Origin: a virus
Lineage: Duplodnaviria > Heunggongvirae > Uroviricota > Caudoviricetes
Direction: 5' to 3' (one strand)
IMG/VR virus record: IMGVR_UViG_3300017987_000047
Length of the DNA stretch: 64,000 bases
Shown here: in pieces, positions 3,622 through 51,518 of the stretch
How positions within the stretch are numbered: position 1 is the first letter of the stretch
Layout of the letters: each line of letters starts with the position of its first letter
Notes under the pieces: model-generated
Told to the model about the DNA's origin: nothing
The model's database searches: none
What the model saw: only the letters and a program-made list of their open reading frames with translations
Position numbers and translations under genes: made by a program

Positions 3622-4655
3622 TAAATTAAGCTCTGGTAGATATTATCGTATTGTTGTGAACACATTTCTATATTAAATTTTGTTTCAATAGTCTCTCTTC
3701 CGCTCTGTCCTAATTTAATCCTAACGTCCTTATTAAAATATAGATATTTTATTGCGGCTACCAAAGCGTTTAAGTCATCATTAGCAATTAAAATTCCATT
3801 TTTACTATTAACCAATTCGGAAACCTGGTCTATGTCAGTGGCAATAACTGGTTTAGAGCAGACCATGCTTTCCATTAATGAATTGGGAATCCCTTCGTTA
3901 TTAGGGCGAGAAACACAAGTCCCAATATCAAATCTTTTAGTATAGGGGATAATGTTTTGTTTATACCCTAAAAATTGGATATACTTTTCATACCCCTTCG
4001 CGGCTGTTTGTAGCTTTGGTAAGTTTTTAGGGGCAGATGGTAAGACAGAATCCCCACCAATTAAGCAAAGTCTAATATCCTCGAATTCCTTCACAAGAAT
4101 TTTGATGGCTTCGATTAGTAGAATTAAATTTTTTCCCCAACCAAACCGAGAAGACCTCCCTATAACAAACTCATTCCCAGTGTAGACTTCATCTGTTTTT
4201 TGCTCTTTATCTATCTCTTCGAGGTTAATCCCATTATAAATAAGGTGGATAGGCAAGTTGGGGGGTGCTGCTTTTTTAATAATCGGAATAGTCCCTTGCG
4301 CAGACGCAATAACTAATTTCAATTTATCCTTTTTAAGCCTTCCACAAGACCGCGTTCCGTCTGTTCTTTCTATAATGTTTTTAACCCCCGCTTTAACAGC
4401 AGCATCTATTTGAGCTTGTTCGTTATGTACCTGAAAGATATCAGGTTTTATTTTTTTTAATAAGGGCTCTAATTTGTCTTGGGGGCAATAAAGTGCCGTG
4501 CCAATTTCCTTAAAATGTGGTTGGATTTCTGGGCTTGCTGTGGCTATAAAGTAGAATTCATATTTACCTTTCAAGCGGTTTGCAATATTTTTTAGGAAGG
4601 TTTCTATCCCCCCAATGTGAAAATCAAACAGACCAAGAGCAATTTTAGGTTTCAT
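3621..4655 (-). CDS. GT4 glycosyltransferase
   Basis: GGIE, IYNGI, EGIPNSLMES (Ex7E), KPVIATD. Confidence 0.9.
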   Translation of the reverse strand: MKPKIALGLFDFHIGGIETFLKNIANRLKGKYEFYFIATASPEIQPHFKEIGTALYCPQDKLEPLLKKIKPDIFQVHNEQAQIDAAVKAGVKNIIERTDGTRSCGRLKKDKLKLVIASAQGTIPIIKKAAPPNLPIHLIYNGINLEEIDKEQKTDEVYTGNEFVIGRSSRFGWGKNLILLIEAIKILVKEFEDIRLCLIGGDSVLPSAPKNLPKLQTAAKGYEKYIQFLGYKQNIIPYTKRFDIGTCVSRPNNEGIPNSLMESMVCSKPVIATDIDQVSELVNSKNGILIANDDLNALVAAIKYLYFNKDVRIKLGQSGRETIETKFNIEMCSQQYDNIYQSLI

Positions 4656-4656
4656 T

Positions 4657-5187
4657 TTATTTCTCTGCTATAACTTTATAACATAAAGGGGCTTTTTTAT
4701 CCCCAAGAGGTTGAATATCAATTTTACTAAAGTCCTCTAGGAGTAATCGTAAACCATGTTCCGTGAATCTCCAATAGTCATAAAACCCTTTTTCTCCATT
4801 AGCATGAATCCAAAAATTAAAAGGGACAGTTAAAGCTAAGAACCCGCCTGGTTTTAGGATAGAAAAGAGACTCTGCGTTGCCTTAAATGGGTTTTTTACG
4901 TGCTCAAGAACATCAAAACAAGTTAAGACATCAAATTCTTCCGAATATAATTCTTTTAGATTTTCAACCCCTGAAACAATATCAATTAGAGGGTCTTGGA
5001 AAACGTCAGAAGTAATGTATTTGCAAACTGGCTTAAATTGTTTTCGAGGGTATTCCCAGGTCCCAGCCCCAACATCTAAAACTTTTTTGCCAGAAACTTT
5101 TTGGATCAATGAATCAATAAATTCCATTATAGCTTTTCTGTTTAAGGTGACTCTGTATCCCTTAAAAGTGACTCTATTTGGCTCCAT
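4657..5187 (-). CDS. Class I SAM methyltransferase
   Basis: VLDVGAG, DVLEHV, LKPGG, DYWRFT. Confidence 0.88.
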   Translation of the reverse strand: MEPNRVTFKGYRVTLNRKAIMEFIDSLIQKVSGKKVLDVGAGTWEYPRKQFKPVCKYITSDVFQDPLIDIVSGVENLKELYSEEFDVLTCFDVLEHVKNPFKATQSLFSILKPGGFLALTVPFNFWIHANGEKGFYDYWRFTEHGLRLLLEDFSKIDIQPLGDKKAPLCYKVIAEK

Positions 5188-29934: not shown

Positions 29935-32625
29935 ATGAAAAAAATCGGAATTATTGGTTTAGGCTACGTTGGGCTCCCTTTAGTGCGCGAGTTCATGAAA
30001 AAAGGGTTAGAAGTTTATGGTTTTGATGTAGATGACCAAAAACTAGATCTATTAAGTAAAGGAAAAAGCTATATTAAGCATATCCCCGATACAATTATTG
30101 GGGAATGGGTCAATTCGGGAAGGTTCTTCCTTTCCAAACCCGAACAAAAGTTAGCAGTTCCCGATGTTTTAATAATCTGTGTCCCTACCCCATTGACAGA
30201 AAATAGGGAACCCAAAATGGAGTATGTGGAGCAAACTACAAATCAAATTGCTAAACATCTTCGGGTTAACCAATTGGTTATTTTAGAGTCTACTACTTGG
30301 CCAGGAACAACAAAAGAGCTAATAAAGCCTATCCTAGATGAAAGGGAAATTCCCTATTATTTAGCTTTTTCCCCTGAGCGGGAAGATCCCGGAAATCCGA
30401 ATTATACAACTGCTACCATTCCAAAAATTGTTGGGGGAGTTGATTCCAAGAGTCTAGAAAAAGCAGTTGAAATATATAAATTAATTATTGATAAAGTTGT
30501 TCCCGTCTCTTCTCTAGAGGTAGCCGAAGCAACAAAGTTAACAGAAAATATTTTTAGATCTGTGAATATTGCCTTAGTTAATGAACTTAAACTATGCTTT
30601 GATAAAATGGGAATTGATATCTGGGAAGTGGTTGAGGCGGCTAAAACAAAACCTTTCGGATATATGCCGTTTTATCCGGGTCCCGGCCTTGGGGGCCATT
30701 GTGTTGCTGGAAAAGAAATCATTACAATTAAAAACAAGAAAAACGAATTAAAAACTACAACGATTGAAAATTTTTATGATTCTGTTGGGTCGAAACAAAT
30801 TATCGAAGAAAACATTTTTTATAAAAACGTGAATGATATTCAAATTTTATCTATTGATGAGAATGGGAATTCCCAATTTTCTCCTATTTCCCAAGTCTCA
30901 AAAAGGGGTGCTACAAAGGCGCTGAAAATTCTTCTTAAGGGTAATAGAACTTTAACTGTTACCCCAGAGCATCTTATGCTTGTTCAAAACGAAAATAAGA
31001 TAGAAGAAAAATTAGCGAAAGATTTACAAATTGGGGATGCCCTTGTCTTATCAAAACCTAGTTTATCCCAAAAAAGATATAAGAATAAGATTGATTTAAT
31101 CGATTTATGTTCAAAACACAAACTTAAAAATATAAAAATTGTCCCAAAAATAGGAAAGTGGGAAAATATATTAGAAATAAGAAAACTTGCGTCTAAACAT
31201 AAAATTAAGCTTTGGGATAATAGACAAAAACCCATTCCCCTATCAGCCTATCTCCTCGCAGAAAAAAATAAGATTCCTCTTCCCAAAAGGGATGATTTAT
31301 TAATTGCTACCGGGAAGGGAAGATCATATTCTGAAATCCCGACAAGTATTGAAGTAAATAAGGATTTTGCTAGGTTTATTGGGTATTACCTTGCAGAGGG
31401 ATGTACCGGAACAGAAAAAAATACTTATAGAACAACAATATCCTTTGGTCGGCATGAAAAAGAATTAATTTCGGAGACAAAGAAAATTATTAAAAATCTT
31501 GGCTTTAAGTGCCCCATACACGAATGTAAAGATTGTCTAACAACCCAAATTAGAGTTAATTCCTTAGTTTTAGGGACTCTTTTAGATAAGGAGTTGCAAT
31601 GCGGAAGGAACTCCTACGACGCAAGAATTCCCTCGCTATTAATGAAAATTCCTCATTTTCTTAAATTTGAATTATTAGGAGCGCTATTCCAAGGGGATGG
31701 TTATGTTGGGCTTTTTTCTGGGATGCGCGATTACAAAATGAAGGGTAAACAATTTTGCCATTTCCATAATTCTGCAACTCTTGAATACTATACTTACAGT
31801 ACAGAATTATACCAACAAGTTATTTTATTAATGCACGAACTTGGTTTCGTTCCAAACTTTGAAAAGAAAAGAAATAACCTAAGATTAAGTGGCCCTCAAG
31901 CAATCGCATTTATTCCATATTTGCGAGAAAATAAAGCCGCAAGATTAGAAAAATATAAGGAAAATAAACGAAAAAATACCCCTCACCGTACTTTTAAAAG
32001 TCATCCTACTCATTATTCTTCGCCGGTAAAAAAAATTGAAGAGGATAAACCTCAAGATGTTTTCAATTTCAATATTGAAGATACCCATACTTTCGTGACA
32101 AGCTTTGGAATTGCTGTTCATAATTGCCTCCCAATCGACCCCTTTTACTTGACCTGGAAGGCTCGACAATTCGATTTCTCCACTAAGTTTATTGAATTAG
32201 CCGGGGAAATAAATACCGCGATGCCTTCACATATTGTGCAAAAAACTATTTTAGCCTTAAATGAAAAAGGAAAAGCCTTAAAAGGTTCCGAGGTCCTCAT
32301 CTTAGGGGTTGCCTATAAACCAAATGTTGATGATATTAGGGAATCTCCTGCCCTTCAAATCATTAAACAACTATCAGACCTCGGCGCAAAAATTTCTTAT
32401 CATGATCCACACATACCACAGATTGGCAAAGGAAGAAAATACGAATTAAATATTAAATCGAAAATTCTTAATAAAAATCTTATAAACAAATCTGACTGTG
32501 TCCTAATTCTCACCGACCATGCTGACGTTGACTACAAATTAGTTCTAACTAATTCTAGTTTGATTGTTGATACTAGGAATGTCTGTGAAAAGTTTGGGAA
32601 GTTTCAAAATGTTGTAAAGGCCTAA
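29935..32625 (+). CDS. Nucleotide-sugar (UDP-GlcNAc/UDP-Glc) 6-dehydrogenase, WbpA/WecC family, intein-containing
   Basis: GLGYVG, CVPTP, ESTTWPG, SPEREDPG, GPGLGGH|C, YKPNVDDIRESP. Confidence 0.93.
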   Translation: MKKIGIIGLGYVGLPLVREFMKKGLEVYGFDVDDQKLDLLSKGKSYIKHIPDTIIGEWVNSGRFFLSKPEQKLAVPDVLIICVPTPLTENREPKMEYVEQTTNQIAKHLRVNQLVILESTTWPGTTKELIKPILDEREIPYYLAFSPEREDPGNPNYTTATIPKIVGGVDSKSLEKAVEIYKLIIDKVVPVSSLEVAEATKLTENIFRSVNIALVNELKLCFDKMGIDIWEVVEAAKTKPFGYMPFYPGPGLGGHCVAGKEIITIKNKKNELKTTTIENFYDSVGSKQIIEENIFYKNVNDIQILSIDENGNSQFSPISQVSKRGATKALKILLKGNRTLTVTPEHLMLVQNENKIEEKLAKDLQIGDALVLSKPSLSQKRYKNKIDLIDLCSKHKLKNIKIVPKIGKWENILEIRKLASKHKIKLWDNRQKPIPLSAYLLAEKNKIPLPKRDDLLIATGKGRSYSEIPTSIEVNKDFARFIGYYLAEGCTGTEKNTYRTTISFGRHEKELISETKKIIKNLGFKCPIHECKDCLTTQIRVNSLVLGTLLDKELQCGRNSYDARIPSLLMKIPHFLKFELLGALFQGDGYVGLFSGMRDYKMKGKQFCHFHNSATLEYYTYSTELYQQVILLMHELGFVPNFEKKRNNLRLSGPQAIAFIPYLRENKAARLEKYKENKRKNTPHRTFKSHPTHYSSPVKKIEEDKPQDVFNFNIEDTHTFVTSFGIAVHNCLPIDPFYLTWKARQFDFSTKFIELAGEINTAMPSHIVQKTILALNEKGKALKGSEVLILGVAYKPNVDDIRESPALQIIKQLSDLGAKISYHDPHIPQIGKGRKYELNIKSKILNKNLINKSDCVLILTDHADVDYKLVLTNSSLIVDTRNVCEKFGKFQNVVKA
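30700..32124 (+). mobile_element. 475-aa intein with LAGLIDADG homing endonuclease
   Basis: Starts with C after GGH and ends VHN before C; block B VTPEH; FIGYYLAEG and LLGALFQGDG. Confidence 0.93.
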
Positions 32626-34442: not shown

Positions 34443-35570
34443 TTATACGATATCTTTTCGTTTTAATTCTTTTAGCACCTTTTCACAAGTATTAAATGAA
34501 TCAAAATACATATTAATTACTGGAATATTATACTCCTGCGCAATTCGTAATGCTTGCCCGGTCCCTCCCGAATCCTTACCATCTTTAGTCCAACAAATAA
34601 TTGCTTTGGAGGGGTTATCTAATTTTTTACCTAAAACTTGAGTTGCATTTCTCCGCATAAAGCTCCATCCCGCGGTTCCAAGATTCTGTGGTGCCGGGTG
34701 ATATTTTTCAACGTAAGAATCAAGTTCTGGAGACTGTTTAATAATAACTGGATGCCCAACTATTGGCCTTTTCTTGTTAAATCCGGGCCAAGGCAAATAC
34801 ACAACACAATGTTTTTTTGCCCCTTTTTCAAAAGCATAATCGGCGCCGTCTGCGTGCCCAGACCGGATAAAGCCACCCCGGTTTGCGATTTCGAAACCAA
34901 TTTTTTGCATTTCAGATAGGATCTGACAAGGAGTTTCTCGAGATCCGATCCCTGTTAAAATTAATTCCTTATTAATTTTTTGTTCCATATTATATCCAAA
35001 TAAGCTAGCATCCTTTTGGAATGCAATCCCAATCTTTTTAGCCAGTTTCTTTGTATAAAACTGAGTATATCCCTTTTCTTTTCCCCGATATCCAAATTTT
35101 TCTTTTGCTAACCTTACTTCCCCCAGACCGACATGCTCACAAATATAATTAAAGTCGTGCTGGAGATGTTCGTAACTCCCAACAAAATCAACCCTTATTC
35201 TGTCATTAATGGTGGCATATCTAAATTGAAGATCATTAAGGTAGCCTCCATCTTTTAGATACTTTTTTACCCATTTTTTAAATCCTTTAATCGAACAATC
35301 TACTCCACGTTGATCCCAATAATACCGAGAAATAACAAGATCCCAAGGATTGCGGGTGAAAGCAAACTTAAAATAAGAGCTCCAGATATTCTTTCCAACA
35401 TATTTTCTTACTTCTTCAATCTTAGAGTGTTCATTAATCTCTGTAATTTTCCCGCCTGTTAAAATAAGATCATCTGGTCCACAGTGTTCTTCTAATGCTG
35501 TTTGAATGCTGGTACCAGCAGTTTTGCGGGATTTTAAAAATATATAACGGTGCCTATGGGATATAATCAT
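34443..35570 (-). CDS. Sulfotransferase fused to SLOG/DprA-like nucleotide-binding domain
   Basis: N-part KTAGTS, RNPWD; C-part TGIGSRETP, SGHADGAD, RRN, SGGTGQA. Confidence 0.82.
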   Translation of the reverse strand: MIISHRHRYIFLKSRKTAGTSIQTALEEHCGPDDLILTGGKITEINEHSKIEEVRKYVGKNIWSSYFKFAFTRNPWDLVISRYYWDQRGVDCSIKGFKKWVKKYLKDGGYLNDLQFRYATINDRIRVDFVGSYEHLQHDFNYICEHVGLGEVRLAKEKFGYRGKEKGYTQFYTKKLAKKIGIAFQKDASLFGYNMEQKINKELILTGIGSRETPCQILSEMQKIGFEIANRGGFIRSGHADGADYAFEKGAKKHCVVYLPWPGFNKKRPIVGHPVIIKQSPELDSYVEKYHPAPQNLGTAGWSFMRRNATQVLGKKLDNPSKAIICWTKDGKDSGGTGQALRIAQEYNIPVINMYFDSFNTCEKVLKELKRKDIV

Positions 35571-35586
35571 TGTATAATTTTATACT

Positions 35587-36778
35587 ATGGGTAGAAAGAA
35601 AAAACCTGAATCAACAAGCACTAAATTATACAAATTTAGAATCTATCCAACAAAAAATCAAATCAAGAAATTTAATCAGTTTTTTGGTACTCATAGATTC
35701 ATCTATAATTATTTTTTAGCTCTCAAAAAAGATCATTATAAAGCAGGATTAAAATTCAGCTCCTATAAAGAAGATCAAGCGGACTTAACTCAATTAAGAA
35801 AATCTTTAGATTGGATGAAAGAGATTCATTCTCAAGCTTGTCAAGCAGCCCTAAAAGACTTACACGATGCTTACAAAAACTTCTTTAATCCAAAATTAAA
35901 AGCAGGACCCTCGATTCAAAAAGAAAAATATTTCTGAGAAGTCTTTTAGAATCCCACAAGGGATTACAGTAACTAAGAATATCTTAAAAATGCCTGCTTT
36001 CATAGAAGGAATCCGAATCAAAAGACATAGAAAAGTTAATGGAAAGATTGCTTATTGTACTATTAAATTAAAACCCTCAGGAAAATATTTTGCTTCGATT
36101 TGTTTCCATGATGAATCAAAACCAAAAATCAAAAAGACTAAAAATGAAGTAGGATTAGATTTTGGAATCAAAAATGCTTTGATTGAGGATAACGGAACAA
36201 AACATGATAAACATGAGAATTTAGATAAATATCACAAGAAACTTAGAAAAAACCAAAAGAAATTGTCAAAGAAAAAGAAAGGATCGAATAATTATCAAAA
36301 ACAAAAACTAAAAGTCGCTAGATGTCATGAAAAGATAACTAATGCTAGAAAAGATAAATTAGACAAAATCTCAAAAAAGATAATTGACGAAAACCAAGCA
36401 ATTTATCTTGAAGATTTAACCGCCCAATTTATGATTAAGAATAAAAACCTAGCATTCTCTGCATCTAATACTGCAATTAATATGTTAAAGTCAATGCTAG
36501 TTTATAAATCGAAATGGCATGGACGAGAACTCGTTCTCGTCCCCCCAAGAAACACATCAAAAACATGTCATATTTGTGATTGGGTTTATAAAGATCTTGA
36601 GCTTTCTGAAAGAGACTGGACTTGTTCAGTTTGTGGAACTTTTCATGATAGGGATATCAACGCAGCTTTAGTTATTAAGAAAAAAGGAAAATTACGTAGG
36701 GCAGGGACTGTCCAAAATCATGCTTTTCTATTACCAGAGGACCCACCTAAAGTGGTAAATCCAACGGTTATTAATTAG
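35587..36778 (+). pseudogene. tnpB: IS200/IS605-family TnpB, frameshifted at ~35910
   Basis: YKFRIYPT N-terminus; RuvC GLDFG / LEDL / DRDINAA; CxxC..CxxC; the +1 frame after KAG resumes PRFKKK. Confidence 0.9.
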
Positions 36779-36785
36779 GAAAGAA

Positions 36786-36814
36786 ACTCCTACTTTTACG
36801 TGGGGGTAGTTCAC
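36786..36814 (+). mobile_element. IS605-type right end / omegaRNA 3' hairpin ending TTCAC; guide 36815-~36830
   Basis: CTCCTAC-TTTTAC-GTGGGGG hairpin followed by TAGTTCAC directly after tnpB. Confidence 0.75.
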
Positions 36815-36844
36815 AAATATAAATTTATGCTGGGATATTATCAT
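36815..36844 (-). pseudogene. 10-codon sulfotransferase N-terminal stub MIISQHKFIF
   Basis: ATG directly follows the upstream TAG; resembles MIISHRHRYIF of 35570; ends exactly at the element end. Confidence 0.7.
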
Positions 36845-37618
36845 CTAAAGATGCAAAAACTCTTGCCATGATTTAAGTGGTCTGTTAAGTAACTTCTTAA
36901 GTTTTGCAACATCGTCTTCATAGATCTCAAGCAACTCAAATTTATCTTGTTTTGTTATTAAAGAATCAAATTCCGTTGTTCTTTTCCCATGGATAATATG
37001 GCCTGCTCGGTTAAACTTATGTTTCGAAACTTCTAGATAAGATGTTAGTTTATTTAATCCTTGGTCTGGGTTTGTTTTAATGTCGTCCTCGTAAACTAAA
37101 ACTAACATATTTGGAAAATATTCTAACCAAGCTTCCAAATGTTCGGAATAAAAACCCATATGGATTATCCCCATTTTCTTTTTCAAGATTTCTCTTGAAT
37201 AAATTTTAGGGAAAGGGTCTGTAAGTCTTCCTTTAACACAATGATGTATATATGCAGAGATAGCCCGGTGAACCGGATTACGTAATGAAACTATAATTTT
37301 TGTCTCAGGCCCGAGAACATCATAAACCATTTTAGGGATATCGCGTCTAAAAATCGATTTGTAGCGTAACCAGTTGTTGGGTTGTTGTGAAGCCCAAAAA
37401 TAAGTTGACGTTGCTTCCCCGTATCTTTTATATTTCCTATCTATATCAAAATAGGATTCATACTTGTTAAGATTATGAACCCCATTTGAATTTTTAGTGA
37501 AGAAATCTAATTCTTTAATTTTCTCGGGCATAAAAATCTCAGGGTGTTCTTTGAGGTTATAATATAACCAGGTTGTCCCCGATTTTTGTGCGCCGATTAC
37601 TAGAAAGTTTGGTAACAT
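36845..37618 (-). CDS. Sulfotransferase (Sulfotransfer_1, heparan-3-O-ST-like)
   Basis: PNFLVIGAQKSGTT, KELDFF, GEATSTY, LRNPVHRAISAY. Confidence 0.9.
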   Translation of the reverse strand: MLPNFLVIGAQKSGTTWLYYNLKEHPEIFMPEKIKELDFFTKNSNGVHNLNKYESYFDIDRKYKRYGEATSTYFWASQQPNNWLRYKSIFRRDIPKMVYDVLGPETKIIVSLRNPVHRAISAYIHHCVKGRLTDPFPKIYSREILKKKMGIIHMGFYSEHLEAWLEYFPNMLVLVYEDDIKTNPDQGLNKLTSYLEVSKHKFNRAGHIIHGKRTTEFDSLITKQDKFELLEIYEDDVAKLKKLLNRPLKSWQEFLHL

Positions 37619-42709: not shown

Positions 42710-43393
42710 TTAGTCCTCCCTTCGAAGATTTATCATATGCCACATTTTTTCAACCGCCCGAGTATTATTATATTCTGTTATACTATAATTTTCCCACTTA
42801 ATAAAATCATCTAACGGGTTATTACGTAAAAGTTCAAGTTTTTCTTCTGCTTCTTCCTTCGTTGTATAGATTGCGATCACTCCGAATTCGTCATAATCAG
42901 AGTATGTAATTGCGTAAACGGTTAGAGGTTCTTTTACCGGATTTAATAAGAATGGGTGAGGTTTTTGGGCATTCTGTACCCTTTCAATTAAATCTTCTAG
43001 AGATACTTTACAGGCTCCAACTTTAAGCATTTCTTTTCTTTTTTCAACCGTAGCCCTAACACACCAGAGAGGGGACAGTTCATGTGTTTCCCACTTTAAT
43101 TCGACTTCGAATCCAAACCGTGCTGAAACTGCATATTTGGGGGGTAATCCTATTTCGTCAAATTTTTGAAGGACTTTTTCGGCATAACTTAGGAAAGCGT
43201 CGAGGGTTGTCCCATCTTCTTCGTCTTCCCGAAAAGCTTCAGGGGAGTTATACCTTTCCCTGCCTTCTTCCCCAAGACTCTCAATCTTAGCAAGGAATTC
43301 TTTTTCGAGAAGTTCTTTATAGCTTTTCATAGCTTTATGCCTTTTTAAATTCATATCCGTAATACTGGATATCTTTTTCGTAAATTCTGGCAA
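42710..43393 (-). CDS. Hypothetical protein (true start probably internal)
   Basis: ORF track; packed in operon. Confidence 0.55.
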   Translation of the reverse strand: MPEFTKKISSITDMNLKRHKAMKSYKELLEKEFLAKIESLGEEGRERYNSPEAFREDEEDGTTLDAFLSYAEKVLQKFDEIGLPPKYAVSARFGFEVELKWETHELSPLWCVRATVEKRKEMLKVGACKVSLEDLIERVQNAQKPHPFLLNPVKEPLTVYAITYSDYDEFGVIAIYTTKEEAEEKLELLRNNPLDDFIKWENYSITEYNNTRAVEKMWHMINLRRED

Positions 43394-43946
43394 CTATTTC
43401 TTTTCGGGTTTTGTTGTAGTACCTCGAATAGTGGGTACGTGAAGATTTATTTCGGTGGGGAATTTTTGTATTCGGGAGGCCAATGCGTTTGAATACTTTG
43501 TTTAAGTCTTCCTGCAAATTTTCAAAACTACACAGCTGGTCCGTAATTTGCTGCCCGTCGCTGTGGGTGTAGTGGTGTATGGCAAAAGAATGGGCTCTAA
43601 CCTTCTTTCTTTTTTTACAAATTTCCTCTATCTCTTCGATAAACTTTTCGGGCTGAATCTTAAAATAACTGGCAATTGAAACTACTCTATCCCAAGGATT
43701 TCGAGTGACCGCGAAAATGAAATAGTTTTCTAATTCTTTTTCTGTTATCTTTTTCAGCCATTCTGTAAATTGTTTTGGGTTATCCTTTTGGTGGATAATA
43801 CCTTTTATCCTTTTCAACAAAATGCTGCGAAGTATGCTTGTTCCCGCAGTTTTTGCTGGCTTCATATAAATAAATCTTTTAGCTGGGGAGACAATAATTC
43901 CACGGGGATGGATATGATTTATCAAAAACTGTTTGCGTATTTCCAC
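43335..43946 (-). CDS. Sulfotransferase (Sulfotransfer_2 type)
   Basis: KPAKTAGTS, RNPWDRVVS, FENL, YSRYY, YGYEF. Confidence 0.85.
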   Translation of the reverse strand: MEIRKQFLINHIHPRGIIVSPAKRFIYMKPAKTAGTSILRSILLKRIKGIIHQKDNPKQFTEWLKKITEKELENYFIFAVTRNPWDRVVSIASYFKIQPEKFIEEIEEICKKRKKVRAHSFAIHHYTHSDGQQITDQLCSFENLQEDLNKVFKRIGLPNTKIPHRNKSSRTHYSRYYNKTRKEIVARIYEKDIQYYGYEFKKA

Positions 43947-51429: not shown

Positions 51430-51518
51430 AGGAACGGGTGGGACTCGAACCCACAAATCGCATAAACGACTACTGGTTTTCAAAACCAGGCCCCGCACCT
51501 ACTGGGGTCAACCGTTCC
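51430..51518 (-). tRNA. Atypical tRNA-Ser(UGA)
   Basis: CTGGT-TTTGAAA-ACCAG, long variable arm, normal T arm, non-canonical D arm. Confidence 0.75.

Follow-up and report, generated by a model that had tools for sequence, protein, structure and literature searches.

The DNA analysed here, a 64,000-nt stretch that we refer to as the window, lies within a contig of 335-384 kb that was recovered in the ENA, JGI and Logan assemblies. It carries 11 tRNA genes, an HNH gene and dense runs of small unknown genes, and no capsid, terminase or other virion hallmark gene was found in the roughly 100 kb examined; judged by its gene content, the source is probably a large phage. Other features of the window are a long tRNA at 51432-51517, whose best score is for tRNA-Sec, just above the gathering score, and a UDP-sugar dehydrogenase gene with an intein and a faint LAGLIDADG match at 29935-32625, a homing-type element located 3 kb from the locus described below.

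The locus consists of an intact sulfotransferase gene (the resident gene), a tnpB gene and an upstream gene of the Sulfotransfer_1 family (Table 1). The layout agrees with an earlier interpretation made from the sequence alone (the sequence-only reading): the ATGs of the resident gene and tnpB diverge across only 16 nt (35571-35586), and the right end of the tnpB element finishes at 36814, where it meets an antisense sulfotransferase start of 10 codons, the stub (36815-36844), which is coupled to the directly preceding TAG of the upstream gene.

Table 1. Features of the tnpB locus in window coordinates.
Feature	Position	Strand	Remarks
Resident intact 375-aa gene, target gene of the tnpB guide	34443..35570	-	Sulfotransfer_2 (aa 2-194) fused to a DprA-like domain
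TAM TTTAA, original insertion point	35533..35537	+	Leu12-Lys13 codons on the coding strand; kept in the resident allele
Replacement copy of codons 1-11	35538..35570	-	27/33 identical to L017
Predicted immune protospacer in the resident allele	35538-35553	-	Guide mismatched at positions 8 and 10-13
Inner remnant of the IS left end	35571..35586	+	35571-35585 agrees with the inner tip of the L034 left end at 15/15 positions
tnpB pseudogene, 116-aa and 262-aa ORFs	35587..36778	+	RuvC D/E/D and Zn-finger cysteines kept
2-nt deletion, sole lesion in tnpB	35908..35914 (approximate)	+	2 nt shorter than the paralog; also in L012-L015
Predicted omega-RNA scaffold and IS right end	36695..36814	+	5' limit approximate; end ..TTCAC; 113/120 identical to the paralog
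Predicted 16-nt guide template	36815..36830	+	Adjoins the right end on its 3' side; matches the TTTAA-flanked L017 allele at 15/16 positions
Displaced original start of the resident gene, 10 codons	36815..36844	-	29/30 identical to L017, with a 3-nt gap between 36830 and 36831
Upstream Sulfotransfer_1 gene, right homology arm	36845..37618	-	In L017, the empty allele, coupled to the ATG of the target gene

The DprA-like domain of the resident gene gave phage-family matches (phrog_768). A homolog search returned a single full-length ortholog, P0008 on the contig L017, which is 83% identical. L017 has the same sulfotransferase/DprA-like fusion, and the fusion is therefore older than the tnpB insertion. 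Among the top 120 homologs no further full-length fusion of this kind was present, and viral_contigs contained no relatives of either sulfotransferase. On L017 the end of the same upstream gene is coupled directly to the intact gene, without tnpB, and a search with the upstream gene gave no second empty allele of this type. Because this empty site matches the stub so closely, the stub represents the resident gene's original start and not, as the sequence-only reading had proposed, the start of a second, competing sulfotransferase gene; a body for such a gene was looked for elsewhere in the window and none was found. The duplication of the gene start is real rather than a chance resemblance, since just 13 of 127,934 33-nt segments match the stub as well as do the 33 nt abutting the left-end remnant. 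The possibility that the resident gene acquired a new start from left-end sequence was rejected given the similarity of that start to L017. In the restored gene, translational coupling to the upstream gene is lost, and a promoter scan detected neither a clear promoter or ribosome site for it nor a full sigma70 site in 35571..35586.

The tnpB product contains HTH, OrfB and Zn-finger domains and the RuvC D-E-D residues. Its nearest relative among 5.8 billion clusters is encoded by the same genome: P0127, an intact 397-aa TnpB that is 81% identical, after which TnpBs are at most 49% identical to the window protein. The paralog forms an intact, intergenic, tnpB-only element (L034:4896-6230) with a full left end of 105 nt (L034:4896-5000), which starts after TTTAA and has the hairpin anatomy found at many other loci. 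Its right end is the same as that of the window element, and similarity between the two stops exactly at 36814. Since 35571-35585 matches the innermost 15 nt of the left end in the paralog, the window element once had a left end too, contrary to the sequence-only reading, in which it had never been present; the outer ~90 nt have given way to a diverged copy, 33 bp long, of the gene start. The remnant includes, 8 nt before the tnpB ATG, a TATAAT hexamer that is a putative promoter element for tnpB. No tnpA was found in the window, L283 or L284, in a search whose control was recovered.

An assembly error was rejected as the source of the frameshift in tnpB, the identical 2-nt deletion being present in the ENA, JGI and Logan assemblies. 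Contig breaks within the gene (36185 and near 36380) were also considered as polymorphism and are not evidence of it because the runs there are shared with the paralog. Within the right end a terminal hairpin is predicted at about 36786-36807. The predicted scaffold folds with -32.3 kcal/mol in the window versus -43.8 kcal/mol in the paralog; against shuffled sequences the fold is not significant (z -1.2). The seven changes in 120 nt together with the weaker predicted fold suggest decay of the scaffold, and because of the deletion and this more weakly folding scaffold the window's tnpB copy is probably dead. P0127 could in principle take over its role by binding the window omega-RNA in trans and continuing to cut tnpB-free sulfotransferase alleles, and the paralog is indeed intact, shares the predicted TAM and has a scaffold close to that of the window; however, the changes in the scaffold make its predicted fold about 11 kcal/mol less stable, and we regard such guide donation as very unlikely.

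Read on the tnpB strand, the empty site of L017 shows TTTAA and then the target, and on this basis the TAM is TTTAA, giving Leu-Lys in place of the TTGAT or TTTAT (Ile-Lys) suggested earlier. The same 5-mer stands at two independent junctions, before the guide match in L017 and before the left end of the paralog (L034:4891-4895), and is the TAM of H. pylori IS605, ISAam1 and SisTnpB7 (PMC13565253, PMC13639567). The guide of TnpB is ~16 nt long (10.1101/2023.11.30.569447). The only indel of the stub, the 3 nt absent after 36830, falls just past guide position 16, and the guide part is conserved. On these points the sequence-only reading is supported: the stub lacks one codon immediately beyond the guide, the resident gene differs across the guide codons, and the predicted guide points at the start of an orthologous sulfotransferase gene. 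That reading also proposed to search relatives for an allele without tnpB that has the TAM and a guide match, and L017 carries one, in which the guide meets a single mismatch (position 8).

Against the resident allele the guide has five mismatches (8, 10, 11, 12 and 13), of which four lie within the 12-nt seed. ISDra2 TnpB no longer cleaves when two mismatches fall in positions 1-12 (PMC13639567), so immunity is predicted for the resident allele, whose seed mismatches are at 8, 10, 11 and 12, in support of the earlier proposal. L017, the sole empty allele, carries the TAM and a near-perfect target and may be sensitive, with one seed mismatch at position 8. Positions 10-13 form an unbroken stretch of four changes, of which the 1125 nt hold only one other; within it a Lys-to-Arg codon is altered at all three bases, one of two Lys-to-Arg changes between the resident and L017 starts. 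The guide targets a conserved motif of the family: of 95 homologs, 46 have HKF, 58 have FLK and 2 have HRY. An exact match to TTTAA plus guide was absent from viral_contigs, scans with the guide alone produced chance matches only, and in the window the guide of the paralog itself meets no good target next to TTTAA. A third sulfotransferase gene (family 2) is located at window 43335-43946, and its motif region matches the guide poorly.

The sequence-only reading saw in this arrangement a TnpB domesticated to spread the phage's own glycan-modification allele, that is, a nuclease kept for removing a functionally different, competing allele. The large glycosylation region that adjoins the target gene, the aim of the guide at a conserved motif and the predicted immunity of the resident allele all fit such a role. 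However, both starts belong to one gene, whose two alleles evolve under purifying selection (dS 0.83, dN/dS 0.11) and differ at their starts in nothing that suggests a functional difference; in addition, the nuclease is broken by the frameshift, and the left-end remnant and the paralog reveal an ordinary IS origin. We therefore consider a role as an allele weapon highly improbable.

The reading that we favour, and hold to be somewhat more probable than its negation, is that the locus is a relic of a gene-restoring, homing-only TnpB cassette. An IS605/IS1341-type tnpB element entered TTTAA between codons 11 and 12, antisense to the sulfotransferase gene, as the empty site and the paralog show. 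The insertion displaced the gene start, which thereby became the guide template. Later recombination would then have swapped the outer ~90 nt of the left end for a diverged copy of codons 1-11, most likely taken from the allele of a related phage; the layout can be read directly, and the route is our reconstruction. This exchange restored the gene, gave it a target that has a TAM but is mismatched in the seed, and took away the end needed by TnpA for excision. From what is known of TnpB biology, the cassette could afterwards have spread by homing alone: the omega-RNA would be produced, TnpB would cut, at 15-21 nt from the TAM, those alleles of a co-infecting relative that lack tnpB, and repair off the gene body and upstream gene arms would copy the cassette into the break. 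The window copy would since have been inactivated by the 2-nt deletion. TnpB drives the spread of IS elements between plasmids (10.1101/2025.02.20.638934), and TnpB-driven spread is reportedly independent of TnpA (PMC13565253).

Sequence divergence bears on how the junction arose. The resident start differs from L017 at 6 of 33 positions, which is the average for the gene, and selection for escape in place is not needed because the start has diverged no further than that. The simplest route would be a crossover between the IS-disrupted allele and an already diverged one, with the gene restored and the left end lost in one step. Between the window tnpB and its paralog dS is 0.67 and dN/dS 0.18; by this comparison tnpB was under purifying selection for most of its divergence, and that selection may predate the loss of the left end. 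Compared with L017, the right arm (upstream tail plus stub) differs at 8 of 108 nt and the left arm at 14-20% (Fisher p 0.02).

An alternative is a one-off rescue, in which the IS inactivated a useful gene, one illegitimate crossover with an already diverged, TnpB-resistant allele made that gene whole again at the cost of most of the left end, and tnpB decayed without ever homing in this form. The difference between the arms fits a mosaic of two parents, and the unremarkable divergence of the resident start, the frameshifted tnpB with its weakened scaffold and the restriction of the cassette, as far as it is known, to one near-clonal lineage agree with such a history as well. The mosaic signal is not clean, though, gene ends being constrained, and the asymmetry could also stem from that constraint. 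The conserved guide part of the stub, with its sole indel outside the 16-nt guide, argues against a one-off event. The seven scaffold changes and the dS to the paralog date the junction neither way. A further point against a one-off rescue, which we judge possible but rather doubtful, is that the same anchored duplication occurs at two other viral loci, unrelated to the window locus, where the tnpB frame is open.

These loci emerged when the 30 nt 3' of the right end were sought upstream of tnpB at 112 viral and 65 cellular loci. The duplication layout was present at three viral loci, the window, L058 and L035, and at none of the cellular ones; with the window set aside the counts are 2/111 and 0/65, a viral enrichment that is not significant (Fisher p 0.53). 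In both L035 and L058 the duplicate restores the 3' end of a gene. In L035 an intact 388-codon tnpB is flanked by diverged 3' ends of a 52-aa Zn-finger-like gene (L035:1341-1400 and 2692-2742), and the resident copy has seed mismatches at 5, 6 and 9; this copy has no T-rich TAM, and a search found no empty-site relative of the locus. In L058 tnpB stands at the overlap of a gene end and the start of the next gene, both of which the duplicate preserves (L058:1406-1443 and 2718-2755); its open tnpB frame lacks an ATG, there is only one seed mismatch, and L282 is a distant empty-site relative. A separate architecture was observed in L002 and L003 around a tnpB at 3623-4795, which has no usual right end and a 12-nt direct repeat, one copy ~85 nt ahead of the start and the other immediately past the stop. 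With regard to the sequence-only reading, the window element goes back to the insertion of an ordinary IS that later lost its left end, which counts against it, and open-frame tnpB genes of the same architecture do exist, which counts for it. We are evenly divided on the broader proposal that large phages repeatedly hold TnpB cassettes in which an immune duplicate of the end of the interrupted gene has taken the place of the left end. Such cassettes would be RNA-guided counterparts of intronless homing endonucleases with the displaced gene end as guide, the window locus being a decayed member and L035 and L058 possibly live ones.

The window element is derived from the IS200/IS605 family (IS1341-type, tnpB-only), with which it shares the TnpB domains, the right end, a guide in the 3' flank, TTTAA 5' of the insertion and, in the window, L283 and L284, the lack of a nearby tnpA, and for which TnpB-driven homing to empty sites is known. 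It departs from the family in three membership features: the left end is cut to 15-16 nt, whereas that of the family has a hairpin; a 33-bp imperfect target duplicate flanks the element, whereas the family makes none; and the uninterrupted tnpB frame, present in P0127, is absent. Moreover, TAM and target persist in cis, with mismatches as the predicted protection, and the target gene is intact. The free-standing endonucleases SegF and SegB of phage T4, whose intronless homing is reviewed in PMC13565253, are likewise encoded beside a conserved gene, and there the donor allele is immune by substitutions, as the window donor is predicted to be; spread would similarly need co-infection and co-conversion. 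In contrast to these proteins, the window system is RNA-guided and would take its specificity from a fragment of the target gene itself that has been displaced. The TnpB homing covered by the same review, of September 2026, is restorative, IStron and plasmid homing, not the type considered here.

A parallel in gene structure is provided by the fungal mitochondrial genes Allomyces atp6, Ophiostoma rps3 and Phlebia atp6/cox2 (PMC4019555), where a homing-endonuclease ORF lies in a gene that a diverged duplicate gene end keeps whole; those systems, however, are protein-guided, duplicate the C-terminal end and reside in a eukaryotic organelle. IStrons, which combine a group I intron with an IS605/IS607 TnpB, also place a TnpB element in a coding gene that is left functional, but in the window the rescue takes place at the DNA level. 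An IStron was rejected here, as the Rfam scan of the window gave only tRNAs and there are just 16 nt upstream of tnpB. In the prophage fliC_P-TldR system (10.1101/2023.11.30.569447) a phage TnpB-family guide is directed at a homolog of the neighbouring gene and the phage's own copy escapes by TAM or seed changes. TldR is RuvC-dead and represses a host promoter, whereas the window tnpB retains its catalytic residues and its predicted guide is aimed at an orthologous coding sequence; a TldR was accordingly rejected, RuvC D, E and D being present. A literature search of incomplete coverage found no description of this layout.

The layout is that of a homing element which cuts the rival copy and keeps its own, disabled here by a frameshift. 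Because the window copy is broken, the locus is evidence for the pattern more than for a working system. It nonetheless supplies an intact paralog in the same genome, a natural guide and two natural alleles, one presumably sensitive to that guide and one predicted to escape it. Should cassettes of this kind home, they would constitute a natural RNA-guided cleave-and-rescue gene drive, and a transposon nuclease could then sit in conserved phage genes without splicing.
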